From contig CM119270.1 in assembly GCA_051294375.1 (NCBI GenBank), positions 15,446,092 through 15,498,701 of the forward strand: a stretch of 52,610 bases of DNA. The letters run 5' to 3'. Shown one piece after another: positions 6,509-47,493 of this stretch. A program made the translations under genes and the position numbers. Under the pieces are notes generated by a model. That model did no database searches, was not told the origin of the DNA, and worked only from the letters and a program-made list of their open reading frames with translations. The DNA comes from Paraspadella gotoi (lineage: Eukaryota; Animalia; Chaetognatha). The number at the start of each line of letters is the position of its first letter. Position 1 is the stretch's first letter.

Positions 6509-7882
6509 ATGTCGTCCACCTCTCCTCCCTCTTCGTCCTCCGACACCGCCTCCGCCACCCCTTCCTCCACCACGCCTCCCGTCTCCTCCCCCTCTTCATC
6601 TCGCTCTCCCGTTTCCATGACAACGTCGTCCTCTCCCTTCTCCCTCGTCTCCTCCATCTCGTCCTCCTTCTCCTCTTCCCCCTCCCACCGACGAGACAGC
6701 GGCTACATGTCCCTCGCCAATTCTCCCGCGTCGCCAGAAGTCGAGAGCGTCAGTAGCAGCCGCTTTTCCTTCGACGTGGCGGCGGCGCAGCGACGGGGAA
6801 CGCAACTGCAGCATCGGCAGCAGCGTCAGTCGCGTCGATTGGCGCCGGAAACGCGCGGCGACGAAGAAAACCCGGAAAACGCGGAGGCGACGTCGCAGAG
6901 CAGCGCCGTCGCCGCGAATGACGACGACAACGACGACGACGTCGAATCCGAGGCTGAAACCGAAACCAAAGACGCGGCCACTTTGCACTCTGCCCCCCAA
7001 ACCTCTACACCTTTGGACTCTGCGCCCCAAACCTTAGCTCCTTTGCACTCTGCGCTTCAAATCTCACCCCCACCACTTCCACTCTCGTAACCCTACCCTC
7101 TTTCTCCCTCACCCCTCGCCCTCTTCCCTTCCTCTCCCCTTTTCCCTCCTTCCACTCCAACTCGCCACCGAAGAATCGAACTTACCTCTCTCCTCCCCCG
7201 ACTCTACCCTCTCCCTTCCTCCCCCACCCCTCCCTCATTTACGCGTCACCCCCACCCCACACCCCCTTTCACCGCCGCCCCAACCGCCGCTCCGCCTCCC
7301 GCCGTCGACGCCCGCCGCCCCTCGTCATCGTCTCTCTTCGAACCGTCGTCTCCTTTTCTCCGTCGTCATCGGCGGTTACGGCATCCGATGCCGAAAATAC
7401 CGCGGCCTTCGACCCTAAAATGCCTTCGAACGTCGAAGATGCCGCGACGATGACTGTTGACGATTTTTTCAACGAAAATTCGGCGTTGGGTGCGGCAGAA
7501 AATGCCGCAACTCACCCCGAAGAGCTTAACGACGTTGGCAGCGCCGAAGCGATTTCCCAAGATCAACTCCAACCGGCGTCAACCGAGCGCGCCGAAACTT
7601 CGGCGTCTTTTTTCCTCGGCGAATCTCCGGACGCCAACGACGCCGCTTCTTCGCAGGGCGCCACTTCCTCGGCGTCGCTACAACTGGAAGACGCGAACGG
7701 CGCCGTCCGAGACCGGCGCCTCAGGGAAGAAAGAACGCCGCTATCGGCGCCGCCTTTTTCGACCTTTTCCTTGCCGGCGTTTCGCTTTCCGGCACTGCTG
7801 CCGGCGCCGCTGCCTAGAATCCCGCCGCCGACGGATGAAGAATCGTTTTCGTTCTTTTCGCCGCCGGCAGAGCGACCGTCGG
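6509..7882 (+). CDS. Large exon of an unknown Ser/Pro/Ala/acidic low-complexity protein with a DSGYMS degron (one apparent frameshift near 7050-7330)
   Basis: acaATG at 6509 opens a frame to 7090. A second frame is open from 6922 to 8028. The island is GC-rich and non-microsatellite, carries an in-frame 30 bp repeat (LHSAPQTSTP/LDSAPQTLAP/LHSALQISPP), and has a candidate donor G|GTCAGT at 7882/7883 (phase 1) where the composition changes abruptly. No homolog recognised. Confidence 0.55.
6983..7072 (+). repeat. 3 x 30 bp frame-preserving tandem repeat
   Basis: TTGCACTCTGCCCCCCAAACC.. / TTGGACTCTGCGCCCCAAACC.. / TTGCACTCTGCGCTTCAAATC.. start at 6983, 7013 and 7043. Confidence 0.85.
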
Positions 7883-13660: not shown

Positions 13661-13733
13661 GCCTCGCTATCGTCTACTCTCCTCTTATCCTCTCTCTCGT
13701 CTCTCACTCTCTCTCTCTCCGTCCTCTCTCTCT

Positions 13734-13778
<45 letters not shown>

Positions 13779-14129
13779 GTCTCTCACTCTCTCGTTCTCT
13801 CCTTCCTCTCTCACCGGGGATCGCAATAGTTTTTCTTAAGAAATTAATTTAATTTCCTTTTCTCTCTCTTCTCTTCTCCCGCCTCTCGTCTCACTTCCGT
13901 TCCCTCTCACATTCTCTCTCTCTCTCTTCTCTCTCTCTTCTCTATCTCTCTCCGCTTACTAAGATGAAGAGTTTGAAACATTTGATACACGTGTGTAACA
14001 AAGTGACGCAAGGCAAGTGGGACTGCCCGGGGGAAAGCTGATTGTTTGTTAGTCGAGTAGAATAAAGACTCGGATATTGCTCTCTCTCTCTCTCTCTCTG
14101 CTCTCTCTCTTCTCTTCTCTCCCTCTCTC

Positions 14130-14154
14130 NNNNNNNNNNNNNNNNNNNNNNNNN
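14130..14154. other. 25-N assembly gap (also 21307-21331, 32177-32201, 34408-34432, 37375-37399, 43394-43418, 47030-47054, 49503-49527; 10-N gaps at 21764 and 41344; longer gaps at 47137, 51275 and 51847)
   Basis: Counted directly. Confidence 0.95.
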
Positions 14155-14576
14155 TCCCTCACCCCCTCACCCCTACACCATCTCTCTCGCTTCGTTCTCT
14201 CTCAATCAAATCCACTTTCGCCGTAAAAACCGCGACTCACCTGATTAAACAGAGTTTTTTCGACGTTTACAGTTGAGGAAACGCCCATTTCTTGTCGCCC
14301 GTTTCTGTCCGATGCGCGTTGCCATGGGTCCATCTCTCTCTCTCTCTCTCTCTCTCTCCATCTGTCTCTCTCTTCATTCTCTCTCTCTTTCGTTTCTTTC
14401 TTTTTTTTTTTTTTTTTTTTTTTTTTCTTTTTTCTTTTTATTTTTTTTTTATTTTTTTTTTTTTTTTTTTTTCTTTTTTTCTTTCTTTTCCTTTAATTGA
14501 TATTTTTGTTTATTAATTCCTCATTTCTGTATTTCTTTCTTCGTTAATTGTTTCTCTATTTATTTTCTTTTTTCTT

Positions 14577-14663
<87 letters not shown>

Positions 14664-17600
14664 CTCTTTCTTTATCTCTTTCTTTCTTTCTTTCTTTCCA
14701 TCTTTCTGACCTCTTCCTTCGATCTTCCCTCCCGCTGTCTCCTCCCACTCAACTCTCTGTCCACCGAATTGGTTCGGTGGCGCTGGATTTATTTGACGTC
14801 ATGTCAGATGCCACGGAATCGATGGCGCCGCTTTGACGCCGGTCGTCGTCGTCGCCGTCTCCGAGCGACCGCAAGGATTTGGACCCGCGGGCGTGGCCAC
14901 GCCTTCGTCCTCCGACGCTTATCGCCACCTAATCACGGAGTCCGGTCTGACAAGATTCCTTTATTACCGCTTTTGCCATCGTCCTTTGCCACCTTCTCCC
15001 TGCCACAAAACCTGCCAATGCTCACGCCGATGCCCAGCATGGCGTCCTTATCGCTTCTTCCCCGAATGATGAATCCGGCATCAGTCGTTAATTGCCATCA
15101 AAGGTGCCACAACAAGAGTGAGTATGAACTGGCACTCAGTACGAAGATCGTGTTGTCGATAAAAGGACGTATAGCCACGTGATTTTGTCGATGAGTAAAG
15201 AGGCGCCTCGTGCTTGATGGGCAAGTTCTCAAGAACCGCTTTAGGATACATAAACGTAAACAGTATACAGCTCTACCTAGTATTAAATAAAGAGATATAG
15301 TCTCAGTCTGGTCCAGGAGATTATCTCTCTCTCTCTATCTCTCGTCGGTTTCTCGTCTCGTCTCTCTCTGCTCTCGTACTCATCATCTCTCGCTACCCCA
15401 GTCTACCATCTTCTCTCTTCTCTCCTTCTCTTTCGCTCTTCTCTCTCTCCAAAATGATTCAACATCATCTCGACATCTTCCATTAATTATCTTCCATCTT
15501 CTAATCGACCTCCGATTTTCGCTTCGCGATTACAGATGAAAAACGACAATGGAATCTGATCCACCTGGTCTTTCCGTCTTTCTCTTTCCTCGGGTTCCAT
15601 CGTCTCCGGAATTCCGCCGGAATTTCGCCGGTTCCGCCCAAGGACACGTCGAGACTCGTTCCGTCGTGGTTCCGGTCCGGAATCGGCCTGGGCGGCGAAG
15701 GTTGGGTCCCAACGCCCCCAACGGGCCCGACGCCGACGGAAAGAGGGAGAGGGAGACAATGAAATGATAAAAAGGAGAGAATTGAAAACCGTCGTGACAA
15801 GGTGGGGAATACGAGTCAATTGAAACAAGTCCAACGAGGAGGTGGGTAAATAAACTGGAGCCATTAACTAGACAACAGTGGGTTGTTTCTCGGGCAAAAA
15901 ACTTTACCTGTTTGTGTTATACTATGATAGTATAAACTGTATTCTTTCTAATTAGGAATTGTCAACTGATTTTAACACTTAAGAACTAATTTTTGATAAG
16001 TAAGGTTCTGGGTATAAGCAGGGCTATGAAAAAAGCGTTTGGGTCGTTTTATGTTGTATGAACTGAGGGCAATTGGGTGGACTTGGGTTTTTTCCGTAGA
16101 GACGTCAACTACGTCAGGCATGGTCCCGTTTCCCCAAGGGGGCGTGTCCCGCCGTGTCCTTCGAGTCAAAGGTCGCACGATGGAATTTCTACGACGAAAT
16201 CGACGGACCAAAGTTCGTCAGAAAAAAAAGGAAATAAAACCTTTTCCGGATTTTTGTGGGATTTCGTTTTCCCTGTTGACGTCAGAGTTGTTGTTGTTGT
16301 TGTTGTTGTTGTTACTGCTGTTATTGTTGTTGTTGTGGTGGTGGTTGTTCAAAAGACCTTGGCCAGATGACACTTTGAAAATATAACTGTTAAAAACGGG
16401 TTGTTTTTAGATGTTTGCAAAACGTCATATATCTGGTAAAAAATAGGGCTTTAGTCCTAAACATAGTAAACAAAATTAAACTGAAACATACAGATTAAAT
16501 AATTAATTAAAACAAAGCCGCTATGGATCGGTCTCGAACCCGCACTCTCGCTACGCATCGAAAATATCTTCGCTTCAAGATTCGCCATTTTCCTTTGGGT
16601 CCATCGCTTCTGGAATTTTCTTTACGTCCGATGGAATAAATGCAAGGAAACACGGAATGCGAAAGACTTCCGATGGCATGCCGGTATGTTCCGTGGCATG
16701 CGAGAATGCCCGGGAGAGGTAAAAAAAGTAGCATCTCACGAGAATTCTGGAATGTAAACTCTAACCCATAATTTTTACGGAGACGTTATCCTCAAGCCAA
16801 ATCCTTAGTGTTTAGAAGCCGAAGATTTTAGTTGAAATTTAATTAAATTTGATTTAATTTGGTTTACAAAATATTATAATGTAATACTTAAATAATCTTT
16901 TTTCATATAATCAGCAACTTTTTTTTCATACGGATCCCCTAAATCTTTAATCAGACATCCTCTCTCCGCAAGTTACTGTCTTTAACCTTTTTTCTTCCAT
17001 CTGATCTCTTGCGTCAAAAAAAAGAAAAAAAAAGAAAGAAGAACAAGTAAGTTGACCTTTGTGTCTTCAACGAGAGGCGAGGCGCACGCAGGGATCCAAC
17101 GTTTATTCAGATTTTTTCCATCTAACTCGAGTTTTATTCCTTGTATTTTTCTGGGTAGTTTTTCTTTCTTTCTCTCGATTTCTTTCTTATTCTTTCTTTC
17201 TTAATCCTTTCTTTCTTTCTTTTCTTTCTTTCTTTCTTTCTCTTCTTTCTTACATTTATCTTCTTCTTTCTTTCTTTCTTTCTTGCTGTCTTTGCGCTTC
17301 TCCTTCTTTGTTTGCTCTACTTATGTTTGTTTTTCCAGAACCAAGACTCTTGATGTCTTTTTTTTTATTTCTCTTTCCTTTTCAAATGCTCTCCTTCCTC
17401 GTCTCCCCCCTCCATTCTCCTCTCGTCTCTTCTCTCTCACTCTCTCTCATCTCTCGATCTCTCCTCTCTCTCTCTCTCGATCTCCTCTCTCTCCTCCACC
17501 CTTCCCATCCTTCTCTTAATCTTCTTTGCCATTCTTTTCTCTCATTTTCCACTGATCGTTATTTTAACTACCACTCTCGCAAGAAGAAGAAGATTCTTGA

Positions 17601-18124
17601 TAAGAATAAAACAAATCATTATTGCCTCACGGTGTCCGCGGTTATTTCCAACTTCGGTCGTCCGTTTATATGTTTTAAAGGTCGATGTATCGATTTTCTG
17701 TTTACACGTATTTAATTTTTGTTAGTTTAGTTTAGTTTTCTCAACTTGCCATGAACTTTTTTTTTTGGTAAGTGTTTTTCCTCTGTTTTTTTTTTCGAAC
17801 TTAGATTAACCGTCGTAGACTTTTTTTTAAGTTTCCAGTTTTCAAGTATTCAGATCCACAGAAAAAAAATAAATCCAACCTACTTATACTCGATCCTGGA
17901 TTTAGGTTGTTAATTTCGATATAGTGAGGGTTCAGATGACACAAACATTTATCTTAGGATTGTTATTTTTTATCCATAGTCATGCCGACGATTCCTTTAA
18001 AAATTTTAAGACGAAACCAAAATCCGTTGTTATATGTTATAATTTTCCCCCGCTATTCGCCTCTTATGGTTTTTCGCTAAATCATCACTATCGAATTTTG
18101 TTTCTCCCAAATCGATGACTTTGG
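14155..18124. repeat. ~4 kb duplicated block, copy B (starts immediately after a 25-N gap)
   Basis: Begins TCCCTCACCCCCTCAC as at 9680 and ends ...AATCGATGACTTTG as at ~13655. Confidence 0.9.
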
Positions 18125-24400: not shown

Positions 24401-27400
24401 ACGCTGCTGACGGTGACAAAGATGACAACAAAACGACAACTGTAGGCTAGCCTTGGCAACATAGAACAATTATTAAATAAGTGATTAACATTGGTGCCCC
24501 GGAAAAAAAATATTGGTGCCAATTACTTTAAATATCGATTCGTAAATGTCAATGACTTTTAAAATGTAGTAAAGTAACGTTTGGTTCATTTGAAAAACAC
24601 GATGACGACGATTTAAACAACAACAAAGATAGTATGGACATCGGACAACGAAGCTAACATTCCGAACAACAACATCAACGGGGAGCCATGTGGACAACAA
24701 CCGCATTGTGGACAACGACGACCAACGCCCACGCAACTACGCGGACCGCAACCAGAGCCAACGATGGCATTGGGGATTTAATCGCTTTAATCACTGGCGA
24801 TAATCGCACAAAGAAAATGGCGTCCACCACCCGCGTCACGAGTTGACGACGCATAATGGGAGAAATCTAGCGGAGGACCGAGGAATTAAAACCAGGGGGC
24901 GTGTGGGGGGAGAAAACAAAAGGTAAACAATGGGAAAAGGAAGGGTTGGGAGAGAAAAAGGGTTGGGAAGAAAAGGAAAGGGAGAGAGAGGAAAGGAGGA
25001 TATGAAATAGAGTTTGAAAATAGACTGACATTAGTATGTTATGCAGCTTTATGATAATGGAATCGGATTAGAAAATAGAGTTTCATTGTTATGATTATTA
25101 GTCTCAAAATCGTTTTTTAAACCGTTTTCACTCTAATGAACATGAAACAGCCGTCTTATTTTCAACATCATACATACATTCCTTTCAATTATTTAATCCA
25201 ACATGAAAATCTTAAGAGCATCACTTTTGGTGTCAAAGTTTTGTAGCTTAAACGATCTTTTGTGCGACTCGTTTTTCTGTTTTATAAACTACAATATATG
25301 AGCATCGTCGTCACTGGTTAGTTATTAACTCTTTATTAACTCTCACTAAGTGAGACGGCGTAAAGAGAATTAGGCGGATCTCTGACGTCATTTACTAGAG
25401 ATAGAGTCGCCCTCATTATTTAAATCAGGATCACACTCGTCGAATTTTGACAGAAAAATGTTTCGGGAAATAATAAAACATTAGCAAAAAAAGTCACATT
25501 TTTAATCCGGACTTAAAGTTGCGATTATTTTTTTTCCTAACCTATTGATTTTTATTCCATGGCGACGACAACTGACCCATAAAGTGTTAATTAATTCTAA
25601 ATCCTAATTCTACAATATGCAAATAAGATTAAAGTACAAGAAAACTTTTTTTTAATTAAATCACCATTTATTAGCTATCGACCACAAGGAAAATCATCGA
25701 CCTTGAACGAGGCGCGGGCGATTCTAGTCACTCACAGTATGTTTCAATATCAGAATCACCGGCTTTTCACAGTCAGTGAAAGAGACTAACCGACACAGAC
25801 GATCACCGAGGGATTCGAAATGCAGAGAGGAAAATAAAATGGCGGTGATCGAGTGAACGAGTGATTAAAGTTCACACTTCACAGTTTTACTCGTCGTGAC
25901 GAGTGAAGTATTCGATTTTATGAGTCATCGAGACCTAATAAAATATCGGGGAGGCCGGAGGGGGGGGGATCGTAAACGAGCATTGAGTTAAATCATTCGA
26001 AACAAACATTCATAAATTTTACATGCATGTAGTATGAAACAAGACGTTCTAACTTGAGTTTATCACCGCCGATCGACTTTGAAAGTCATTGGTTCTCCAC
26101 CATCCATTCACACACCACCTTTACTTCGCACTCCCCCGTCCCTCGCCCATCCTGCAATTCACCCCCCCCCCTTTTAACGCCTTATTGAAAAGGTTGTTCG
26201 CTTACAAGACGCACAATGGGGCGTCAAAGAGAATGGCACCATTCTGCGTTCATCCGTCGCCCTTCCATCGCTGGTTCCATCCGCGGTTCCACGATGACCA
26301 TTAGTTTAAAAGGCGGGAGTTTGATAGAGTGGTACTATAATTTATGATTATAGTATAACTTAAATTTATATTTTACTGAGAAGCAAATTTAAAAAAAAAA
26401 AGATTTTTATTTAGACCCGTCAATTAAGCGGTGAGAAGTTGGCCGATATTCAACAATTTAGAAAGTAAATACCCCCAAATTATTTTGCTGTAAAATATTA
26501 TTTCAGTATTTTTTTTTCGTATATATAATATATAAAAATCTTTATTTTTCATCAAAATTAGCCACCCTATTCCTACGCGCGTCCTCAGGACCCGCGATCG
26601 CGTCTGACCATCGCGTTCAGTCAACTAAGAAAAAAACCGATGGACGCGCGAGCGAGAAACAGAAAATAGAAAAATCTCATTTGCATAAAGGAATCATTCG
26701 TTATGACGGAGGTTAAGCGGGACCGTAAACAAGGGAGAAGAGAGCGAGAGCGAGAGGAGCATCCTTTATCTCTCTCTCTCTCTCTCCATCTTTTACTGGT
26801 TGTCTTTTCATTCATTATTAACGCGGGGGCAGCGAGAAGGAGAGAAAAAAATGGAAGAATGATTTTTTTAAAAAAATATTTATCTTTTTTTCCCTTTGTT
26901 TAAGTTTGACTAATGACAGCGAGATTTTTTCTCCGCTTATGTTATGCGCACGACCGTTCGCACCTTGTTCGCATGTTCTTCGCGCTCATAGGATGTGTTC
27001 GTGATTCGATTTAAGATGTGACTCATGATGTGAGATCGAAGGAAGGAAATCGAAATTGAACGTAAACAGAAACGTGTTATCCTTCGACCTTTCACCGCCG
27101 AAGTCGCGAGTTTTACTAACGTAATCATATTTTGTAAACAAATCAAAACGAGATATTAAAAAAAATATAACTGCCAACCGTAAAGACTTTTACTATGAAA
27201 TGACGCTTGAAAATATATAGAATTAAGTGAACAAGTAAAAAATTTTCCCACGAATCTTGTAAAGTAATGCAATCTTAGTTAAATTGGAGAGCAGAGAATA
27301 CCGGAGAGAAAACCGGTTAAAAAACCCGGATGTAACTTCTTTGGCGACGAATCGAATCGTCATCATCGTCTTCTGTCGGCTTTGCTTAACGACTTCTCTA

Positions 27401-29690: not shown

Positions 29691-29834
29691 ACGTCGCCAC
29701 CATTCCGAACCACAACAACAACAACAGGAAGAAGCAACAAACGTCGACTCTCCCCAGTCGAAGTGAACAACGACAACAAAAATCTCTGAACGAGACCCGG
29801 ACCGCCGCCGGACCTGATCCCGGGAGTAGAGAAG
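29691..29834 (+). CDS. Internal exon (144 nt, phase 1/1) of the candidate BH3-only gene
   Basis: TTTTTACATTTTAG| acceptor and AAG|GTAAAT donor. Only one of three frames is open: (D)VATIPNHNNNNRKKQQTSTLPSRSEQRQQKSLNETRTAAGPDPGSRE. Followed by a CTTT-repeat intron. Confidence 0.65.
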
Positions 29835-29865
29835 GTAAATTTTTCTTTCTTTCTTCTTTCTTTCT

Positions 29866-29901
<36 letters not shown>

Positions 29902-29911
29902 TTTTTTTTTT

Positions 29912-29942
<31 letters not shown>

Positions 29943-30037
29943 TTTTCTTTCTTTCTTTTCTTTCTTTCTTTCTTTCTTTCTTCATTCTTTCTCTCTCTCT
30001 CTCGCTTCTCATTTTATTCCATTCCTTTTTGACAGAG

Positions 30038-30111
30038 CTTCCCAACTTCCGGTTATCGGGAGAGAACTTTCTCGCATCGCAGATGAAATCGAAGCGGAAT
30101 ACAGCGGAAGG
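30038..30111 (+). CDS. BH3-motif exon of a candidate BH3-only (Bim/Puma/Bmf-class) Bcl-2 family protein
   Basis: The frame starting at 30037 reads ASQLPVIGRELSRIADEIEAEYSGR, matching the BH3 consensus phi-G/A-x-x-L-x-x-I-G/A-D-E-phi. Polypyrimidine tract plus CAG/AG acceptor at 30033-30037, and a consensus AGG|GTAAGT donor (phase 0) at 30111/30112. Confidence 0.65.
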
Positions 30112-30440
30112 GTAAGTAAAAGTAAAACAACAACAACAAGAACTTTTAAACATTAAAACGAATAAGTAAATTATAAAAAGAAATTTATTTAAACGACAGA
30201 AATGCTAAATGACAATCTCTCTCTCTCGTCTCTCTCCTCTCTCTCTCTCTCTCTTCTCTCTCTCTTCGTCTCTCTCTGCTCTTCTCTCTTTTTTTTCACT
30301 TTGCTTACCCGCCAAGCTAACCATCTCTCTCCCTCTAACCGCACTCACCTCAACCAAGCAATAATGTCGAATAAACGCCGCCCATATTTTTTTTTCAATC
30401 TTTTTTTTCCAATCAATTTTATATTCTCCTCGGCAGTCGT

Positions 30441-30514
<74 letters not shown>

Positions 30515-30546
30515 GTCCTCTCTTCGTCTGCGCTCTCCTCCACCAG

Positions 30547-30618
30547 ACGACTCCCTCTCCATCTTTCTCCCCCACGCCCACTTCACTCACTGCCGTCTCC
30601 ATCGTCTCGATTTTGTGA
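30547..30618 (+). CDS. Candidate terminal exon of the BH3-only gene
   Basis: Long CT tract then CCACCAG| acceptor. The phase-0 reading is TTPSPSFSPTPTSLTAVSIVSIL-stop, with a hydrophobic end and AATAAA overlapping the stop. Alternative acceptors exist (e.g. ~30316). Confidence 0.3.
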   Translation, partial: TTPSPSFSPTPTSLTAVSIVSIL

Positions 30619-31799: not shown

Positions 31800-32357
31800 T
31801 CTCTCGTCTCCTCTCTCTCTCTCTCTCTCTCTCTATCTCGTCTCTCATCTCTCTCTCTCATCTCTTCTCTCTCTCTCTCTCTTCGACTCATCCATCTCGT
31901 CCTCGTTTTTTCAGAGCTTTCTCCCTCTGACTCGCTTAACCTCCAACCTTAACCAGAATCACACAATCATCCTCTTAACTAAAAAAAATCCGTAAGCACC
32001 TCTCTTCCTCTCTCTCGTCCCTCTCTCTCTCTCTCTCTCTCTCTCTCATCTCTCATCTCTCTCGCTCTCTCTCTCTTCGCATCTCATCTCTCCCTCTCTC
32101 TCTCGGTCCATTATCCCTTTCCGTCATGAATCAGAACAGAGAGGGAGATACGATTTAAATATTCCTTTAATGGGGTNNNNNNNNNNNNNNNNNNNNNNNN
32201 NTCTCCTCTCTCTCTCTCTCTCTCACTCCACTCTTCTCGTTTTTTCAGACTTTCTCCCTCTGACTCGCTTACCTGCAACCTTAGCCAGAAGATCACCAAT
32301 CACTCCTCTTAACTAAAAAAAAAAAATTCCGTAACACCTCTCTCTCTCTCGCTCCTC

Positions 32358-32442
<85 letters not shown>

Positions 32443-32490
32443 TCTCCTCATTGAAATCAAACAGAGAGAGACGATTTATATTCCTTTATG
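31800..32490. repeat. Short duplication flanking a 25-N gap
   Basis: CTCGTTTTTTCAGA..CTTTCTCCCTCTGACTCGCTT..CTCTTAACTAAAAAAAA.TCCGTAA occurs at ~31903-32000 and ~32236-32340. Confidence 0.85.
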
Positions 32491-32747
32491 TGTCACTCTC
32501 CGCATTTCCGTCCCTCATTGTGGCCCCTTTTCCTTCGGCCCTCCCGCCTCGCGGTCATCAGAAAGAATTTGTTAATGCTCTTTTCTGCCGTTATATTGCT
32601 TTTATTTTCGGCTTTAATTGCTCTTTTCTTCGCCGGGTTCAGGGATGAAGGACGAGAGGAGATGATAAAGCTGGAATATGTCGAATTGAGAGGGAGAGAG
32701 AAGAGAAGAGAGAGAGAGACGAGAAGAGAGAGAGCAGAGAGAGAAGA

Positions 32748-32779
<32 letters not shown>

Positions 32780-35424
32780 CAAAGAGAAAACTCCAAATGC
32801 CGCCATAATGGATTTTCTGCGAAAGTGTGACGACAGACAGAAAGTTCGTTACTGCGCATTTAAAAACTCGATACGACAAAAGTTTCACCGAATCGTCAAT
32901 TAGTGATTCAGGTTTCGAGTTCGTCACTGATTCACTGATGTTTCAATTTTCCGTCCCGTGACTCTCACATCCTCACCGGTGATTCACTGGCGACCAAATC
33001 CGCTCCTTCGATGTTTCCTCACGAATCAAGATGATCGATTTGTTTTGTTTACAGTCGAAGATTCGAATTTGATTCTTTTTTTAGTAAACAATCATTTCTC
33101 TTTTTATTCACGCGTCATTTCTTACTTATCGTTCGAATTCAGTAGATTTATCGTTTTCAATCTAAATTCCTTAGCGTCCTGTTTCTTTTACGGTTTCAAA
33201 CGGTTTTCGAGTCATTGTGAAAACTCGTCCTTTTTCCTCACCGCCAGACCCTAAAAATAATTTGGCGATCACTCCTTCTACGAGTAAATAGGTCAAAATA
33301 ATCTACGGACTTAACAAAGGAAAAAAATCACCGTATTCCCATTTTGATCAGACTCGCGGTCAAATCGCTTCCTAAAACCACCAGCTTCTTTCCCTAATCT
33401 ATTTTTCAATCTCATCTCCTCCTAACTTTTTTTGTCCTTCCAGATCTTCAGAATCGGCGTTTTTTCCGTTTGTTCGTCTCGATCGTCGTCGTCGTTCGTC
33501 ACTTTTGTCGGTTGTTTTCCAAAGAAAATACTATTTGTTATCGCTTTGAGATACAATCCGAGAGATTATCTGACTGTTACATGCACTAACATCCTCAATT
33601 ACAAATAAGTTTGTCTAGCTATCGTTTAGTCCCATTTAAATTTAAATCTCGAACGTAAAATAAAAACTTTTTTTTTCTTTAATAGTTGCTTAGCAGCAGG
33701 ACGAACGCCTGTTAGTATACTTTGCACTTCGACATATACTAATCTCCTACTTCTCTATACCTAAAACAAAATCTTTAATCTATCAATATCAAATAGTGAC
33801 TGAGTGACTCTCTTCTCTAACGAGCCACACGCTGGTTAAGCCGATTATAAAGGGTAACCTTTTTGTCGTCGTCGCGTCCAAAAATACAAAAAACACCTTT
33901 TGAAGGGTGGACCGCCCGTTCGAAGCCATTAATCGCACCAAAGGGTTTTTCCCAACAGGATTAAACTTTCATCTCGTCGTCGTCGTCGTCGTCTATGTTG
34001 TGATGTTTTTGATTTTGTTATTGTTGTTTGTCAGTTTGTCGCCGTTCTGTTGTCGTCGTCGTCGAGGTTTCTACGTCATCGTTTTTTTCGACACTAGTTA
34101 AAGCTTTTTCGTCGTCCGTCGTCATCGTCATCAGTCTTTGTTGGTTTGTTTTTGTTGTTGTTTCTTGTGAAGTAGTTGTTGCGTTGTTAACAACATCTTT
34201 GTCGCCTGTGTAACCCTCCACTCGGACAGTCAATCATTCTCTATTGGGAGCCGTGAGCAATTTTCTGTCCTCAATATACCTATTATATATATTATATTAT
34301 TTTTATTATACTAATCATTTTCATGCCAGAGGTTTCGTTCTCTAAAATCCCTCAATCTCCGACGTCGTCTTCTTTCGTCGTCGTCTTCATGGCTAGCGCT
34401 CTTCGTCNNNNNNNNNNNNNNNNNNNNNNNNNCTCCACCCTACCCACCCAACCACCACCACAATCCCTCAACACACCCGCAGCCTCACCCGCCTCCATCT
34501 CGCTCGCTCCTGGATAACAGAATTCCCCCCCCACGTATTCATGGCCCGTTTCCAAGACTCCCGGACGCCCTCCTCATTTTTTTTTCGCTCCTGCTTTACT
34601 CACCACTAGGAGCCACGCTATTTCGCCTTTGTAGGCCCGGTACTCATTTCCTCCAGTTGCCTCTCGTCCGTGTCGCGTGTCGTCTCGTCGTCGTCACGTC
34701 GTCGTCCGTCGCGGCTCTCGTCTTATTTTGACATCGTTATTGCGGTCGTTAACTGTTATGCTCTGCGAGTTTCGATCCTTCATTGTAATTTATTCCTGTT
34801 TTTCATAAATTTAAATCAATCTCTCCTTGCCTGTTTAATTTTTTTTTGTTCTCCTCCCCCCCCCCACTGTCGCCGGCCCCCCCCTGTCTCCATCTGCCGA
34901 TTTTCCCCACCCCCAATGTTTCCCCATATCCTAAGCCCATTTGCCAATACGACTCAGACGCCTCAAGGACGAGTTCGCGTCTTCCAGACTCTTCAGAATC
35001 GGAGTTTTTTCTCTCGTCTTGTCTATCGTCCGTCGTCGTCGTCGTGTCACTTTTTTCGGTTTGTTTTCCAAAAATATTATTTGTTATCGTTTGAATAAAT
35101 CGAATTATTCTGGCTATTAATACTAATCTTAATTACAAAAGTTATTTGCTTAGCTTATCGTGTTAGTTCCCATTTAAATTATAAATCGTACGTAAATAAA
35201 AACTTTTTTTTTTTAAAGTTTTAGAGAGACGAACGTGTAATATTTCACTTTGACATAATACTAATTCCTACTTCTCTTATACCTAATAACAAAAAAATCT
35301 TTAATCTATCAAATCATAATAGTGACGAGTGACTTCTCTTCTCTAACGGACCACCACGCGTTTAACCGATTTATAATAAGGGTAACCTTTTCGTCGTCGT
35401 CGTCGTCCAAAAATAAAAACTCAC

Positions 35425-35768
35425 CTTTTGAAGGGTGGACCACCGCGAAGCCATTAATCGCACCAAAGGGTTTTTCCGCAACAGGATTAAATCTTTCATC
35501 ATCAATCGCGTCTCCGTCGTCTATGTTGTTGATTTTGATTTTTGGATTGTTGTTTGTATGTTTGTCGCCGCTTGCGTTGTCGTCGTCGTCGAGTGTGTCT
35601 ACGTCACGTTTTTTTTCGCCAACTAGTTAAAGCTTTTTCGTCGTCGTCTCATCGTCATCAAGAGTCTTTGGTTTTGTTTTTGTTGTTGTTTCTTGACGAG
35701 TATTGTTGCGTTGTAACAACATCTTTGTCGCCTCTGTAACCCTTCCACTCGGCACAGTCAATCATTCT
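35425..35768 (-). CDS. Candidate Asp/Asn-rich exon (noisy copy)
   Basis: On the minus strand, CCAATAG|AGAATG acceptor and a consensus AAG|GTGAGT donor. The 3' end reads DERFNPVAEKPFGAINGFAVVHPSK. Contains internal indels. Confidence 0.35.
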
Positions 35769-36458
35769 CTATTGGAGCGTTGAGCAATTTTCTGTCCTCA
35801 ATATACCTATTAAAAAAAATAAATATATTAATATAAAATCATTTTCATAAGAGATTTCGTTCAAAATCTAACTCCTCATCGCTCGTCTTCTTCGTCGTCG
35901 TCTTCATGGTCGTCTTCGTCGTAATCGTCGTCGTCTCTTCATCGTCACCTAATTTTTAAAAATTTCAAACGAAAAAGAGCTTTCGAAAATTGATCCCTGC
36001 CTGGAGACGATGACTACGATGATAGAGATGACGATGATGAATGATGACGATGATGATGAGATGGATGAATGATCGATTGATGAATGATGATGATATGATG
36101 AAGTATGACTGAATTGTGACAAGGAGACGTCAATGAATTCAACGGCAGGACGAGAGATATATTTTGCAAACATATATTTTTTTCTTAATATATTCAAAGG
36201 ATAAATTTTAAAATTTAAATTGACAATTAAAGCAAATAAAATTAGATATATATCGGAAAATCTACTAAACTATTAACGCACGACAACGACAACGAGATAT
36301 TCATTAAGCAGGTTTAACCAAATTCGATTCGTTTTCTGGATAATTTTTTTTTCCCTTTTATTCTTTTTTGTCTTTATATTCTTACTCTTTTTTTTTTGTA
36401 CAAAAGATTCGCATCTGAAAAAACAGGATCCACGCGGATGTGAGATTGAGAGAGAGAT

Positions 36459-36518
<60 letters not shown>

Positions 36519-38407
36519 CTTATTTTACACCGTTTTTTTTCTTTTTATATCTTGTTTTAGTTTTTTTTTCCTTTGTTCTCTTTATTATTTCTGTTTTCTT
36601 TTCTTTTTCCACTCATTTTTGTGTCCTTTTCATTTTTCCTCTTCGTATCTTCATCGTCTTTAGTTATGTTTTCTTTCTTTTTTTCTCTTATCTCTCTTCT
36701 TTTTTTCGTCGTAATCGTCGTCGTCGTCTTCATCGTCACCAATTTTTAAAAATTTTTTAAACGAAAAAAGTTTTCGAAACTTGATCTCCGGCCTGGAGAC
36801 GATGACTACGATGATGATGATGATGACGATGATGACGATGATGACGATGATGATGATGATGATGATATTGATAATGAAGATGACTGATGTGTGACAATGG
36901 AGACGTCAATGAATTCAACGGAGGACGAGATGAGATTTTTTGCAAACATATATTTTTTCTTTAAATATTCAAAGGATAAATTTTAAATTTAAATTGACAA
37001 TTAAACCAATAAATATTAGTATATTATCGGAAAATCATAACTTAAACTATTACGACGACAACGACGACGACGACAACGAGGACGATGTGAGTCATTGCGG
37101 TTAACCGCAAGATTCGATTCGTTTTCTGGATAATTTTTTTTCCCTTTTATTCTTTTTTTTTCTTTTATATTTCTTAGTGTACTTTTATAATTTCTTATCT
37201 CTTTTTTTTTTGTTACATAATAGATTCGCATCTGAAAAAAACAGGATCTCCACAGCGGAGTGTTGAGTAGAGGTGAGAGAGAGAGGAGAGAAGAGAGGAA
37301 GAGAGTAGAGAGAGAGAGAGAGAGAAGAGAGAGAGGAGGAGAGAGAGAGAGAGAGAAGAGCTATTTACATGTTTNNNNNNNNNNNNNNNNNNNNNNNNNG
37401 AAAAGTTCGTTACTAAGCGCAATTTAAAAACGTGAATTCTACAAAGTTGCACAGTAATCATCAAATTTAGTGATTCAGGTGTGTGAAGGAGTTCGATGAG
37501 CACTGATTAGATTCGAGATTTTCGTCCAGTGACTGCTCACATCCGAGCACTCGTGAGAAGGGCTGGCGTGACCAAGTGCCGCTCGGGCTATATCGATGGT
37601 TCCATCACGAATACAAAGAGTAGGATCGATGATTGTTTTGTTTAGGCAGATCGAAATGTCGAAATTTGAGAGTACATTTGATTGTTAGTAGAAACAAATG
37701 CATGTTCTATGATTTTAAATTATATTTATTATTTTTTATTTATTAATTATCAGTGTCGAATTGCAGAAGGTAGATTTTATCGTTTTTCAGATCAGAATGG
37801 TAACCTGTAGCGGAGCCTAGTTGCTTTATGAGCAGGTTTCAAAGACGGTATTCGAGAGGTACATTGGAGTGAAAACTCAGTCATCCTTATATGCCATGAA
37901 CGAACGAGGATGACAGAACGAAGAGAACGTAGAAAAGAAAGAGTAAAAATATCTGGCGAATGACTGGGTGAGCTCATATCACATATAGAGTATAATTGAG
38001 AGGATGTTAAATTCAAGAGAATAAATCTAAGACGGACGAAAACCATGGAAAAAAAATCACGTGTTCCGATTTTGATCAGACTCGCGTCAATTTATCGCTT
38101 CTAAAACCACCAGCTTCTTTCCCTTAATCATATTTTTTCATCTCATCATGGCCCTCCCACGACGGGGCTACCCACCCAACAACCACCACCCCTCAACCAC
38201 ACTCCGCAGGCTCTCACACCCTCCATCTCGCTCGCCCTTGGAATAACAGAAAGTGTCCCCCCCCCGTATTCATGGCCGCGGTTTCCAAACTGCGCGGACA
38301 GGCCGCCTCCTCATTTTTTTTTATTCGCTCCTGCTTTACTCACCCTAAGGAGCCAAACCTGATTTCGCCGCTTTGTGGCCACGGTACTCATTTCCCCCGT
38401 TTGCCTT

Positions 38408-38443
<36 letters not shown>

Positions 38444-41400
38444 GTCGTCCGTCGTCCGACGTCGCGGTGCTTCTTCGTCTTGATTTTTTGACATCGTTTA
38501 TTGCGGTTCGTAACTGTTGCATCTCTCGAGTTTCGATCCTTCATGTAATTTATTCCTTGTTTTTCAATAAATTAATCAATCTCTCCTTGCCTGTTGTAAT
38601 TTTTTTCATTTCTCTCCCCACCCGCCCACTGTCGCCGGCCGCCTGCCCCTGTCTCCACAGTCCTTTCGCCCAGCCCACCAATGAGTTCCCCAGTATCCCA
38701 GCCCTTTTGCCTAATACGTCGTAATCGCAGGCTCTCAAGGATTTCGCTGAGCATTTGGTCCTTAACTTTTTTTGTGCTTTACCAGATATCAAGAATCGGA
38801 TTTTTTCCGTTCGTCGTTCGTTATCGTCGTCGTCGATCGTGCGTCGCACTTTTTCGTTGTTTTCCTCAAAAAAAGAATTATTTTCTCATCGTCTCTGAAT
38901 CGAATTTTCTCTGCTCGTAATGACTAATCTTAATTACACAAAAGTTATTTGTCTTAGCTATTCGTGTTAGTTCCCATTTATAAATAAACTCGTACGTAAA
39001 TAAAAACTTTTTTTTTAAAGGTTTAGAGACGAACGTGTAATATTTCACTTTGACAATTACTAATCTACTTCTCTTATACTAAAACAAAATCTTTTAATCT
39101 ATCAAGTATCAATAGTGACTGGTGTCTCATCTCAACGGACCACACGCTGGTTAACCGATTATAAAGGGTAACCTTTTCGTCGTCGTCGTCGTCCAAATAA
39201 CTAAAAAACACCTTTTGAAGGGTGGACCACTTCCGCGAAGCCCATTAATCGCCTACCAAAAGGGTTTTTTCCGCAACAGGAATTAAATCTTTCATCGTTC
39301 TCTCGTCGTCGTCTCTATGTTTTGTTTTTGCAATTTTGTTTATTGTTGTTGTAGTTTGTGCGCCGTTCTGGTTTGTCGTCGTCGTCGAGGTTGTCTTACG
39401 TCATCGTTTTTTTTCGACACTAGGTTAAAGGCTTTTTTCGTCGTCTCGTCGTCATCAAGTCATCGTCTTTGTTGGTTTGTTTTGTTGTTTGTTTTCTTTG
39501 AAGTAAGTTTGTGTCGTTGTTAACAACATCTGTTGTCGCCGTTAACCCTCACTCGGACAGTCAATCATTCTCTATTGGAGCGTGAGCATTTTCTGTCCTC
39601 AATATAACCCTTTAATATATATATATTATTTTTTTATATAATCATTTTTCATGCCAGAGAGTTTCGTTCTCTAAATCTCCTCATCTCGCGCAGTCGTCTT
39701 CTTCGTCGTCGTCTTAATGGTGTCTTCGTCGTAATCGTCGTCGTCGTCTTCATCGTTTCAACCAATTTTTAAAAATTTTTTTAAACGAAAAAGAGTTTTC
39801 GAAACTTGATCTCGGCCTGGAGACGATGACTAACGATGATGAGTGATGATGACGATGATGACGATGATGACGATGATGATGATGATGATGATATTGATAA
39901 TGAAGTATGACTGATGTGTGACAATGGAGACGTCAATGGAAATTCAACGGAGGACGAGATGAGATTTTTTTGCAAACATATAATTTTTTTCTTAAAATAA
40001 TTCAAAGGATAAATTTTAAAATTTAAATTGACAATTAAACGCAAATAAATTAGGTATATTATCGAAAATCATTAACTTAACTAAATTACGAACGACAACG
40101 ACGACGACGATCACGAGGACGATGTGAGTCATTGGCGTAACGCAAGATTCGATTCGTTTTCTGGATATATTTTTTTTCCCTTTATTTCTTTTTTTCGTCT
40201 TTTATTATTTCTTACTCTTTTTTTTTTGTTACAGAAAGATTCGCATCTGAAAAAAACAGGATCCACGCGGAGTGTTGAGTGAGAGAGCAGAGAGAGAGAT
40301 GCAGAGACAGAGAGAGAGACGAGAGAGAGAGAGAAGATGAGAGAGAGAGAGAGAAGAGAGAGAGAGACTCTTACTATTTACACGCGTTTCTTTTTTCTTT
40401 TTATATCTTTGTTTTTAGTTTTTTTTTCTTTTTGTTCTCTTTATTATTTCTGTTTTCTTTTCTGTTTTTCCCCTCATTTTCTTTTTGTCCTTTCATTTTT
40501 CCTTCTTCGTATCTTCATCGGTCTTTAGTTATGTTTGTTCTTTTATTCTCTCTTTTTGTTTTTTCTCGTTTATGCTCAACGTCCTTTGCTACTTTTTGGG
40601 CCGAACCCGAAGAAAAAGAGAGACACAAAAAGAGACCGATAAAGCAATCAACTAACCTACCAAGCATTTAACCAAGCAATACACAAACCAAACAATATTA
40701 ATCGGACAAGAAAACCTAAGTAGTCTGTATATAAAATATTAAATATTAAATTCCCCCCATTTTCCCGTTTTGTAAACATCCCATAAAATAAAATCAAAAT
40801 ATGAAAACAAATCAGATAACTTTCTTAACGTTTCACATCTTATTCATTCACCGAAAAAAAAACACAAGAAAAAAAACAACAAAAGAATAATAAAAACAAA
40901 TCTCTTTGTTTTCTTTTCTTTGGTTTCGATCGAAACCACTGATGAGCTTCTCCAGATCAAAAAAAAAAAAAGGAAAAAAGAAAAAAAAAAGGAAAAAAAA
41001 GAAAAAAAGCTTCAAAAACATATGATCGCTGAACAAAAACGAGTTTAAAAAGTCCAGGCCTCTTTCTTTTTTTCTTTTTTTTCGAGACGAGGCGCCTTTT
41101 AAAATCTTGTTATCTTTCGAGTGAAGATTTATTTTTCTTTCCCTTTTTTTTTATTCATTGATCTATTTATAACTTCGACCGATGCATGCGTGTTTGGTAG
41201 AACGGTAAAAGATTTAGTTTTTTTTAGTTTTTTTTAAACTAATGTTTTTTGGACAGTTCCGATTATAATTTAACAATAAGGAAAGTTATTTAAGAAATCC
41301 ACGCCTTAACCAATACCAGCCTTTTGTTCCAAATCAAAGGCTTNNNNNNNNNNCGTGTAATATTTCACTTTGACAATTACTAATCTACTTCTTTATACTA

Positions 41401-41531
41401 AAACAAAATCTTTAATCTATCAATATCAAATAGTGACTGAGTGACTCTCTTCTCTAACGGACCACACGCTGGTAACCGATTATAAAGGGTAACCTTTTCG
41501 TCGTCGTCGTCGTCCAAAAATAAAAAACCAC

Positions 41532-41867
41532 CTTTTGAAGGGTGGACCACCCGCGAAGCCATTAATCGCCACCAAAAGGGTTTTTCCGCAACAGGATTAA
41601 ATCTTTCATCGTCATCATCGTCGTCGTCTATGTTGTTGTTTTTGATTTTGTTATTGTTGTTGTAGTTTGTCGCCGTTTGGTTGTCGTCGTCGTCGAGGTT
41701 GTCTACGTCATCGTTTTTTTCGCCACTAGGTTAAAGCTTTTTTCGTCGTCGTCGTCATCGTCATCGTCTTTGTTGGTTTTGTTTTTGTTGTTGTTTCTTG
41801 AAGTAGTTGTTGTCGTTGTTAACAACATCGTTGTCGCCGTTAACCCTGCACTCGGACAGTCAATCAT
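41532..41867 (-). CDS. Candidate Asp/Asn-rich exon (cleanest copy)
   Basis: The cross-copy consensus reads MIDCPS(G/A)GLTATTMLLTTTTTTSRNNNKNKTNKDDDDDDDDEKSFNLV(S/A)KKNDDVDNLDDDDNQTATNYNNNNKIKNNNIDDDDDDDERFNPVAEKP. It needs the 8-A run seen in the 35.6 and 39.4 kb copies; this copy has 7. Confidence 0.4.
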
Positions 41868-42213
41868 TCTCATTGGAGCGTGAGCATTTTCTGTCCTCAA
41901 TATACCTTTATATATATATATATTTATATATAATCATTTTCATGAAAGAGTTTCGTTCTCTAACTCCTCATCGCGGTCGTCTTCTTCGTCGTCGTCTTCA
42001 TGGTCGTCTTCGTCGTAATCGTCGTCGTCGTCTTCATCGTCACCAATTCAAGAGAAGAAGCATTCTTTATTCTTTTTATTCTCTTTATATTTCTTACTCT
42101 TTTTTTTTTGTTACAAAAGATTCGCATCTGAAAAAAACAGAAAGACCATCCACTCGCGGAGTGGTTGACGTGGTGAGAGAGAGACGGCAGAGAGCAGACG
42201 AGAGCAGAGAGAT

Positions 42214-42248
<35 letters not shown>

Positions 42249-43945
42249 AAGAGCAGAGAGAGAGAGAGAGAGCTATTTACCGCGCTTTCTTTTTATCTTC
42301 TTTATCATCCGTTGGTTTTTTAGTTTCTTTCTTTCGTTCTTGTTCCTCCTTTAATTCATTTCGTCGATTGTTGCGTCTGTTATCTGTTATTTCGAGGCTA
42401 TTTTCGTCGTGAGTCCTTCGGGGCATCATTTGTTCCTTTCTTCGACTGCCTTCACGGATGCGTTAGTTCATGGTTGTTACTTCTTATTCTCTCCGTCTTT
42501 CTAGCTTTTTTTCGTTTCATCGCTCAACGTGCCCTTTAGCCTAGCTTTTCTGGGGCCGAACTGCGCGAAGGACAGAAAGAGAGACACAAAAACGAGACCG
42601 ATAAAAGCGAAATCAAAACTAACCAGTAAGCGCGAAGGGAGACAGGCTTGTTAAGTCGCGAGCGTAAGCAACATACACAAGACCAACACATATTCATTGT
42701 CACGCGCACTAAGAGTGCGGGAACCTAGAGTACGTCTGTGATACATAAAGCATATTAAAATATTAAACTTCCCCCATTTTCCCGTTTTTGTAAACACTGC
42801 CCGGATAAAAATGCAAATCAAAATATAAAACAAATCCAGTTAACTTCTATAACGTTTCACTCTTATTCATTCACCGAAAAAAAACACAGAGAAAAAACAA
42901 CAAAAGAATAATAAACAACAATCTCTTTGTTTTCTTTTCTTTGGTTCGATCGAAACCACTGAGAGCTTCTCCAGATCAAAAAAAAAAAAAAAAGGAAAAA
43001 AAGAAAAAAAAAGGAAAAAAAAAGAAAAAAAGGCTTCAAAAAACATATGATCGCTGAACAAACCGAGTTTTAAAAAGTCCAGGCCTCTTTCTTTCTTTTT
43101 TCTTTTTTTTTCCGACGCCGCACCTCTTAAATCTTGTTATCTTTTCGAGTGAAGTTTATTTTTCTTCCCTTTTTTTATTCATGATCTATTTATACATGTA
43201 TCTAATCCGATGACGTGTTGGTCTCAGCAGACGGTAAAAGATTTACGTTTTTTAGTTTTTTTTTAACTAATGTTTTTTTGGAGCAGTTTCCGATTATAAT
43301 TTAACAATAAGGAAAGTTATTTAAGAAATCCACGCCTTAACCAAAACCAGCCTTTTGTTCCAAATCAAAGGCTTCGTCCAAAGATACAACATTNNNNNNN
43401 NNNNNNNNNNNNNNNNNNTAATTTACTTTCTTTCCAACTTAATATAAATTCAAAACAGAAAAATGAGTTTCGAAACTTGATCCCGTGCCTGGAGGACGTA
43501 TGACTACGATGACTAGACGATCGACGATGATGTATGATGATGACGATGATGATGATGATGGATGAATGATCGATTGATGATATGATGATGATATGATGAA
43601 GTATGACTGATGTGTGACAAGGAGACGTCAATGAATTCAACGGAGGACGAGATGATATTTTTGCAAACATATATTTTTTTCTTGAAATATTCAAAGGATA
43701 AATTTTAAATTTAAATTGACAATTAAACCAAATAAAATTAGATATACTATCGGAAAATCATACTAAAACTATTACGACGACAACGACGACGAGATATGTC
43801 ATTGCGGTTAACCCAAGATTCGATTCGTTTTCTGGATAATTTTTTTTTCCCTTTTATTCTTTTTTCTCTTTTATATTTCTTACTCTTTTTTTTTTGTTAC
43901 AAAAGATTCGCATCTGAAAAAACAGGATCCACGCGGATGTGAGTT

Positions 43946-44021
<76 letters not shown>

Positions 44022-44938
44022 ATTTTACACGCGTTTTTTTTCTTTTTATATCTTGTTTTTAGTTTTTTTTTCCTTTTGTTCTCTTTATTATGTTCTGTTT
44101 TCTTTTCTGTTTTTCCACTTTCATTTTCTGTTGTCCTTTTCATTTTTCCTCTTCGTATCTTCATCATCTTTATTATGTTTTCTTTCTTATTTTCTCTTAT
44201 CTCTCTTCTTTTTTTTTTTTTTCACAAATGTTATTCGTCATGTTAGATCTCCCGTCGCGTCAACGTGTAATTGTAAGCCGTCCATCGGACCGAAACGAGA
44301 AACCGTCAACCTATTTTCAGCTCAAATTTGGATTTTCACTTTTCTAAAGTGATTTTCCTTTTTTTTTTACTTCATCTTCGACGTCTTTACCTTTTATTTT
44401 CGGTTTTTGATTCACTCAAAGAAAAAAAAAGAAAAAAAAAGGATCCCTTCCTAAAATAGAGAAGCATTACCGAAAAGAAAGGAATGGGGGAAAAAAATTG
44501 AAAGAATAAAGTTGATAAAAGTCCATTACTGAGATAGACGGGGATGGCGGCCGATGCGGTGGTAGGGGAGGGGGTAAGCTCGATGGTGGTGGAGGTGAAA
44601 CGATTGTGAGAGAAGTCTTAGAGATAGTTGAATCTTCGAAAGATTAAGAGTATTAAGTATTTAAGAATTTGTAATAGATTACAATGGAAAATGTCAGTGA
44701 CTTAAAGCATTTAAATAGGAGAAATCCAATTTGTTAATGACGATAGCTACAGTAAGGGTGGTATAAGTAGCGCTACCATCGCGACGGCGACCTCTGTACA
44801 TCTTTAACAGCGTCGGCGGCGGCGGCGGAGGCGAGCTCTCCGTTCGTGCAGAAGCTAGAAATTTTTATTATTTTTTGGCGCTTTGCCATTTTTCAGGCGT
44901 TGCTAATCTCTGATGAACGACTTGATAAAAAGTAACGC

Positions 44939-45566: not shown

Positions 45567-47493
45567 TGCGTTTTTCTTTTTTTTTTCTCAGTGAGATTCC
45601 ACGACATCTAAGTCCTCGCTGTTTGAAGAAATATTAAGGTTCTATCTCCTCTCTCTCATCATTTTCTCTCCTCTGCTCTCTCTCCTCCTCTCTTTCCTCT
45701 ACTCTCTCTCGTTCTTCTCTCTCGTCTCTCTCATCTCTGCTTCTCTCTCTCTCTTTACTCTCTCTCTTCTCTCTCGTCTTCTTTGCTCATCCTCTCTCCC
45801 TTAACCTATTTTTCCATCAAATCCTCTTTTTTTCGAATCTTTATAATCCCCCAGGCCCAGAGTTTCTGCTCTCTTCTAATCGCCCATCTTCTTTTTATTT
45901 CTTTCTCGTTTTTTTTTTCTTTCCATTCGTTTCTTATCTTTCTTTTTTCTTTCTCTCATTAGATAGCGCCTCTTCTTCCATCACAGCATTCAAACCAAAG
46001 CAATGTTTCAAAGAGCCCGCTTTCCATTCTTATTTCTCGTTTTTCTTTCTACTTTCTTCTTCTTCTTTCTTTCTTTCTTTCTTTCTTTCCTTCTTTCTTT
46101 CTTTTTCTTGTCTATTCTTCTTTCTTTCTCTCTCTTTCCTTCCTGTTTTCTTTTCTCTTGATTACTCTTCATTAACTAAGCTTCTATATCTAATCTTAAT
46201 AATATTATTCCTAATCTCTCTCCTCCTCGCTCTACCTCCCTTGTTTGTTTAAATGTATTTTCTCCGTATTTGTTTTTTTTCCTCCCAGATTCTTATTATT
46301 TCTTCGTCTCCTCCTCTTCATTCATCATTTTTTCCCATATAAAATTTCACATGCTCCATTTCGTCTGTCTTTTGGGTCGGGTTGAATCAAATACTTCATT
46401 TCTTTCAAAAGAATGGAGAGGAGGAAGGGGGGGGAGGAGGAGGCAGGTGAGGAGGAGGAGGTAAAGAAGGAGGAGGAAGAAAAAAGATAGAAAAGCAAGA
46501 ATGAAGCATTTAGTAGAGGGCAATGAAATAAGAATTAGACGGTAGGTAGCGGTTATGAGAAGGAGAGAAGTGAGGGAATGAATATTGAAAATATTAAACG
46601 TAACTATAGACATTATTCAACAAGCCGTTTCTGGTATAATAAAAAAAAGAAATAAATGGTCAATAATTCGTGTACTATTTGAATATAAGTGACATAGTCT
46701 TTCAAACACAATTTTTGTTTTTCGTTCATTCGCCTTTTCATTCCCTCTCTCCATCAAGGATTTTTTTACTACCAGAGACACATAGATGAGCGCCCTGAGA
46801 AACAACCTACCGAGTCCAGTCCGAGTCCATCTAAGTCAGGCCGTCAGAGGATGGAGAGAGCATAGTAATGATTGTATGTTAGATCTTAGAGAGTCACGAC
46901 GAGCCCATGCCTCTATAATATTTAAGCGAAATCTGACCGAACCCGCGTCGGGGTCACGTTCACTTTCGTTACGCGATATTCACGGCGCTGGACCAGTTGA
47001 ACAGAGAGTGACGGCGTGAGGTGCTGTGANNNNNNNNNNNNNNNNNNNNNNNNNTGGTTTTTCTTTTTTTTTCTCAGTGAGATTCACCATCTAAGTCTCG
47101 CGTGAAAAATATAAGGTTCTATCTCTCTCTCTCTCTNNNNNNNNNNNNNNNNNNNNNNNNNNNNNNNNNNNNNNNNNNNNNNNNNNNNNNNNNNNNNNNN
47201 NNNNNNNNNNNNNNNNNNNNNNNNNNNNNNNNNNNNNNNNNNNNNNNNNNNNNNNNNNNNNNNNNNNNNNNNNNNNNNNNNNNNNNNNNNNNNNNNNNNN
47301 NNNNNNNNNNNNNNNNNNNNNNNNTTCTGCTCTCTTCAATCGCCATCTTTCTTTTTATTTCTTTTCTCTTTTTTTCTTTCCATCTTTCTTTCTTTTTTTC
47401 TTTCTCTCATTAGATGCGCCTCTTCCATCACAGATTCAAACCAAACAATGTTTCAAACGAGCCGCTTTCATTCTTATTCTCTTTTTCTTTCTA

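Follow-up and report, generated by a model that had tools for sequence, protein, structure and literature searches.

Introduction

In most invertebrate apoptosis pathways the upstream switch, a BH3-only protein, is still missing because such proteins escape sequence searches (PMC8998228, PMC10107002). In PMC8998228, they are described as known in Hydra, schistosomes and nematodes and as possible in Lophotrochozoa, and candidates of 118 to 373 amino acids (aa) found with Bim, Bad and Bmf seeds are reported from echinoderms. The authors who described Sayonara consider most BH3 proteins to be unrelated to one another and their in silico prediction to be notoriously difficult (PMC10107002), and BH3 consensus patterns are reported to predict poorly (PMC9171138).

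The closest described system is Bim. Exon E4 of human Bim encodes aa 132 to 166, including the BH3 at 148 to 162 (PMC4695108 supplement), and Bim isoforms swap exactly aa 167 to 198 (same supplement), which places a phase-0 boundary at the end of E4. In PMC7456325, the Bim BH3 peptide as printed ends 14 residues past its Leu; taken with the supplement of PMC4695108, this places a phase-0 junction at Leu+14. Residue 132 is Ala, Gly or Val depending on the isoform (PMC4695108 supplement), so entry into E4 is in phase 1, with an Ala-Ser start. Bim is a listed substrate of beta-TrCP with the degron core S-G-Y-F-S (PMC10317156 Table 1; also PMC4695108), the beta-TrCP consensus being DSGXXS (PMC13097077), and its hydrophobic C-terminus directs the protein to membranes (PMC4695108). 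The literature searched gives no account of the Bim intron position being shared with invertebrates, a point on which subscription papers, figures and the supplements of other papers may bear, and a search for Bim-like BH3-only proteins in invertebrates returned no paper under those terms together.

Here, we describe a short exon in a window of 52,610 nucleotides (the whole stretch of DNA that was analyzed). With a probability of about 0.68, this exon is part of a Bim-like BH3-only gene; the kind of protein is known, and the member would be newly found.

Results

The exon is real as sequence. It lies on the + strand at 30036..30111, starting at 30036 with a CAG acceptor or at 30038 with a GAG acceptor, and its 74 to 76 nt are flanked by repeats, a TTTC array (29842-30000) on the 5' side and a TC array (30216-30289) on the 3' side. 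An earlier note had described a unique exon of about 75 nt amid microsatellites, with a polypyrimidine tract, an AG acceptor and the donor AGG/GTAAGT; each of these elements is present, and no second copy of the segment occurs in the window. Two AGs adjoin the exon start, at 30034-30035 and 30036-30037 (CAGAG). On the + strand of the window, the donor after 30111 ranks 4 among 2458 GT sites, and the CAG and GAG acceptors rank 20 (score 9.0) and 507 (score 1.8) among 2674 AG sites, as scored with generic, approximate matrices. The preceding intron (29835..30035, +) consists mostly of the TTTC array, carries a branch-like CTCAT motif at -28 and ends in the CAG at 30033-30035.

The frame from 30037 reads ...IGRELSRIADEIEAEYSGR and contains the BH3 pattern: Ile at -4, Gly at -3, Leu at 0 (codon at 30067), Ile at +3, Ala at +4, Asp at +5, Ile at +7, Tyr at +11 and Arg at +14, followed directly by a phase-0 intron. 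The donor thus lies in phase 0, 14 codons 3' of the Leu codon, as had been claimed, and the companion claim that the Bim BH3 exon ends in the same phase at the same position is borne out by PMC4695108 and PMC7456325. The exon matches the minimal BH3 motif (L-x3-G/A/S-D with four hydrophobic positions), which was taken from PMC10107002, and is the single match to a strict BH3 pattern across the six frames of the window.

The motif alone does not exceed chance; its placement in the exon, with a phase-0 end at Leu+14, does. By chance, 0.17 matches to the strict pattern are expected per window and 1 was seen, so the motif by itself is not rare. Among simulated 76-nt exons, the strict pattern occurs in 2 to 5 per 100,000 and a looser core pattern that ends in phase 0 at Leu+14 in 1 to 2 per 100,000; in each of four models, none of 300,000 exons combines the strict pattern with such an end. 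Since the pattern was defined only after the exon was seen, these figures flatter the exon.

Profile searches point in the same direction at lower strength. Scoring of the peptide with a BH3 profile, which had been proposed as a check, was partly favorable: PF08945 (Bim BH3) is the only family matched among 24736 in Pfam (E 0.09 to 0.15), but its score of 12.4 to 13.1 bits is about half of the gathering cut-off of 25. The PUMA model in Pfam gave no match to the exon. Of the nine PDB matches at E≤10, seven are BH3 peptides of Puma, Bim or Bak (five of them Puma), and the best match, above all of the BH3 peptides, is to two chains of aspartate beta-decarboxylase. The top three clusters in the ESM Atlas, at 0.81, 0.78 and 0.77, are BH3 clusters of BH3-only proteins and are taken as a lead only. 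The C-terminal helix of L-aspartate beta-decarboxylase (PDB 2zy3 and 2zy5, residues 509-529) mimics a BH3 and outscores Puma, which makes it a useful false-positive control for BH3 patterns.

Searches for relatives were negative. Against 1.84 billion representatives, phmmer returned two matches to the exon, a protein of Tudor repeats and one of tandem repeats, both unrelated to Bcl-2 and rejected as relatives. Word-based searches yielded 0 of 12 candidates (71 to 2000 aa) for the BH3 stretch, 0 of 80 (339 to 2000 aa) for the degron region described below and 0 of 869 (108 to 345 aa) for 7291-7881, and the ESM Atlas gave no usable match to the degron region. In a metagenome scan that covered 24 of 64 parts, 4 of 599 stretches passed; all were class I (bacterial valyl-tRNA-synthetase-like) tRNA synthetases and were discarded. 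These matches and those to aspartate beta-decarboxylase show that BH3-like helices match by chance. A search of sequencing runs found 20 that share 0.13 of the words, none reaching half, and four runs compared with 30005-30210 yielded short intron matches only and no reads over the exon.

The main difficulty concerns the reading frame. The upstream exon 29691..29834 ends in phase 1, and the frame that follows depends on the choice between CAG and GAG: the CAG acceptor joins this exon to another frame (ELPNF...), not to the BH3 frame, and the GAG acceptor (the distal AG) gives a phase-1 entry starting with Ala-Ser. The BH3 frame therefore requires either that splicing use the weak AG located two bases further 3' or that one base be missing from the assembly near the exon start. 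The junction 29834-30038 proposed in the earlier note does not hold up well in this respect, because it relies on the second AG of CAGAG and the CAG acceptor for a start at 30036 is the stronger one.

The window shows visible signs of error. Blocks of 0.3 to 2.5 kb, in two to four copies at 72 to 93% identity, adjoin 25-N gaps in 9680-18120, 31860-44220 and 46170-48250; they are likely artefacts of long-read gap filling, not true duplications. Local duplicates beside the gaps owe most of their differences to indels (in one alignment of 854 columns, 47 indel events against 8 substitutions), so single-base errors are to be expected. GA and TC arrays near the exons contain 3.5 to 8 breaks per 100 bases, compared with 0 to 1.4 in three clean arrays. 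The window is error-prone, and a one-base assembly error is plausible, though the exons themselves may be accurate.

Alternatively, the locus could be a genuine gene whose disordered product is read in the ELPNF frame through the canonical CAG, the BH3 pattern having arisen by chance in the overlapping frame, which would not be used. Ordinary splicing rules applied to the assembled sequence lead to this outcome: the ELPNF frame runs without a premature stop into the candidate last exon, giving 262 aa when counted from Met 7420. Moreover, chance helices can outscore true BH3 peptides, and a scan of such size looks at very many exons. We nonetheless consider this reading unlikely, given that the ELPNF frame of the exon has no match in Pfam or PDB, that the BH3 pattern at the Bim intron position was absent from all simulated exons in each model, and that the indel-rich duplicates make a single-base error an expected event.

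Upstream of the BH3 exon, the gene model includes a probable first coding region in two parts. Part 1 (6509..7087, +) starts at ATG 6509, within an open reading frame (ORF) at 6260-7090, and is followed by a stop at 7088. It is Ser/Pro-rich and acidic, with in-frame 30-bp repeats at 6981-7055; the ORF from ATG 6509 contains 28% Ser, and 6509-6976 contains 85% disorder-promoting residues and nine S/T-P sites. A motif search identified DSGYMS, a match to the beta-TrCP degron consensus DSGxxS, at 6695..6712 (+). Shuffling of the two long ORF parts gives a chance expectation of 0.021 for DSGxxS and 0.005 for [DS]SG[YF]xS, and the window holds three further matches to DSGxxS when all six frames are counted. 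About 20 codons after DSGYMS, at 6764-6775, F-S-F-D is encoded; the Bim degron ends in F-S-F, and the resemblance may be due to chance.

Part 2 (6958..7882, +), also probable, lies in the next frame, within ORF 6958-8028, and ends at the donor CGG/GTCAGT in phase 1 (score 7.6), a phase that fits exon 29691. Parts 1 and 2 overlap by 130 nt in successive frames, which is likely to reflect a one-base assembly frameshift. Part 2 also contains a strong phase-0 acceptor (score 10.4), by which 7657-7882 could become a separate or alternative exon of 226 nt. The region 6509-7882 probably belongs to the same gene as the BH3 exon.

The internal exon 29691..29834 (+; 144 nt) is of low complexity and is open only in phase 1-1; its donor ranks 22 among 2458 and its acceptor 135 among 2674. 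The description of the upstream exon as low-complexity and disordered agrees with its composition, and the three upstream parts together range from 79 to 89% disorder-promoting residues, a figure that comes from composition alone and would change with the gene model. A further segment, 24560-24770, is purine-rich and has the look of Asn/Asp-coding sequence but was rejected as an exon, lacking good splice sites and breaking in its frames; it slightly resembles exon 29691-29834.

Downstream, the preferred last coding exon is 33444..33605 (+), with an acceptor that ranks 3 and a CTAAC at -22. In the phase-0 reading, it starts with IFRIGVFS and stays hydrophobic and basic. Noisy copies of this exon occur at ~34988 and ~38786; in phase 0, two of the three copies have a mean hydropathy of 1.8 to 1.9 over 15 residues and the third 0.4, the frame not being fixed, and the frame of the majority reading of the three shifted with the alignment settings. 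The rival last exon, 30547..30618 (+), comprises 23 codons with a weakly hydrophobic end. It is the exon implied by the last-exon end at 30618 in the earlier note, and it is the weaker of the two, with an acceptor that ranks 53 (versus 3) and no branch-point motif (versus CTAAC).

The nature of the downstream exons bears on the alternative that the BH3 exon belongs to a multidomain gene of the Bax/Bak/Bcl-2 type, its BH1/BH2 exons being garbled or outside the window. The DNA 3' of 30200 is noisy and duplicated, and the PDB matches include a BH3 peptide from Bak. Human BAX, too, has an intron near the end of the BH3 helix, which counts for this alternative. However, no Bcl-2-family Pfam match was found in 378 of 384 ORFs selected by complexity from 886 (six near N runs were omitted), the + strand of the 22 kb downstream contains neither GGW codons nor, even with one error allowed, NWGR codons, and PF00452 (the multidomain Bcl-2 family) with BH1/BH2 exons was not found. 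The upstream exons are long and disordered, and the next strong acceptor leads to a short, probably hydrophobic exon; on these grounds, a multidomain gene is improbable. The claim that no BH1/BH2 (NWGR) exon lies nearby agrees with the window as far as its noisy downstream DNA can show. A Pfam match to Auts2 above the cut-off falls on a GA repeat of low complexity and was rejected, and the remaining ORF matches are of low complexity as well.

Taken from Met 7420 through the last exon, the phases form a chain (1-1-(1)-0) without a stop. The T-over-A skew on the + strand is 0.11 to 0.16 across 5001-47000 and -0.06 and 0.02 outside, so that 5001-47000 is likely to be a + strand transcription unit. 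The CpG observed/expected ratio of the whole window is 1.28 (1.30 with repeats masked), a value of about 1.3 that excludes a typical vertebrate and, together with the microsatellite types, suggests little germ-line methylation. The microsatellites are of GA, TTTC, GTC and GAT; no CA or TA arrays are among the matches listed (150 of 174). Long GT-AG introns would fit an animal genome.

Against the model count two frame breaks, at the start of the BH3 exon and in the first coding region. These breaks also count for the alternative that no functional coding gene is present, the exons being pseudo-exons in repeat-rich DNA, remains of a decayed gene or part of a non-animal genome without a BH3 partner. 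Sequence searches found no relatives, no Pfam match in the window points to a taxon, and further exon candidates that score highly, 46289-46446 among them, seem spurious; conversely, open frames of 156 to 197 codons in otherwise stop-rich DNA, the compatible phases and the strand skew give the absence of a gene a low probability. Another alternative is an IAP antagonist of the RHG family that resembles Hid and carries a BH3-like segment. It shares the outline of a disordered middle, a short terminal exon and a hydrophobic tail (PMC8620624 sections 2.3 and 2.5) but is very improbable: an IAP-binding motif (pattern from the same paper) follows 0 of 11 Met codons in 6200-7900, though a 5' exon outside the model could carry one, the single + strand match (10376) is inside the modelled intron and a duplicated block, and the insect RHG homologues cited in that paper are <300 aa.

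Discussion

A divergent invertebrate BH3-only gene, as the earlier note had proposed, remains the best explanation of the locus, in view of the Bim intron position, the degron-bearing disordered region and the probably hydrophobic last exon in compatible phases. That proposal is weakened by a Pfam score at half the cut-off, by an enzyme helix that outscores the BH3 peptides and by a BH3 frame that can be reached only if the acceptor is non-canonical or the assembly is in error; the term "invertebrate" derives from composition only.

Assuming a single transcript, the BH3-only gene would span roughly 27 kb with four coding exons, the BH3 exon being penultimate, and would encode a product of ~570 aa. 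Its BH3 frame would be translated through the distal AG or, if one base is absent from the assembly, directly. The predicted protein, long and disordered, might be kept at a low level by the putative phosphodegron, which would be phosphorylated and read by beta-TrCP/Slimb. The C-terminal tail may anchor the product in a membrane, inserting in mitochondria, and the BH3 helix would then occupy the groove of pro-survival Bcl-2 proteins; such occupation would free or activate Bax/Bak and lead to cell death.

A stronger claim would make the gene a genuine Bim orthologue that has diverged deeply, in a protostome whose genome is unmethylated, and would trace the limits of the BH3 exon, the beta-TrCP degron and the tail exon to the bilaterian ancestor; this is possible but doubtful. 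If it were correct, apoptosis would have come under Bim-type control long before vertebrates arose, and such control could be found through exon geometry, not through sequence, which would speak against the view that the BH3-only proteins of different lineages are unrelated. A candidate that shares both the Bim intron position and the degron offers a handle on homology versus convergence among BH3-only proteins. We suggest a search rule for any animal genome: a short exon with a BH3 pattern and a phase-0 donor at Leu+14.

Like the candidate, Drosophila Sayonara and nematode EGL-1/CED-13 are protostome BH3-only proteins missed by homology searches. Unlike it, Sayonara is a coiled-coil member of PTHR21974 with a convergent BH3, and a Bim-like layout is not reported for any of these proteins in the literature covered. 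The echinoderm candidates are likewise long and predicted to be disordered, carry the BH3 on one exon and are candidates by sequence only; they differ in that no sequence link was found to this locus, whose CpG ratio of 1.3 is not depleted and whose model is longer. Puma (BBC3) shares Ala-Asp at +4/+5 and Tyr at +11 and accounts for most of the PDB BH3-peptide matches.

The most extensive likeness is to human and mouse Bim (BCL2L11). The predicted product differs from it in length (~570 aa here versus 198), in an extra 144-nt exon and in having no alignable similarity beyond motifs, and no dynein light chain motif (TQT-type; DKSTQT in Bim) was found in the modelled exons. Because the PF08945 score stays below the cut-off and this motif was not found, the candidate is not filed as Bim. 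The likeness lies in a short exon, predicted here to be penultimate, that carries the BH3 and Tyr at +11 and ends in phase 0 at Leu+14; in a likely phase-1 entry beginning with Ala-Ser (here in the distal-AG reading); in a Ser/Pro-rich exon further upstream that contains the degron core S-G-Y-x-S (here a motif whose link to the BH3 exon is probable); and in a short last exon that, here, may be hydrophobic/basic.
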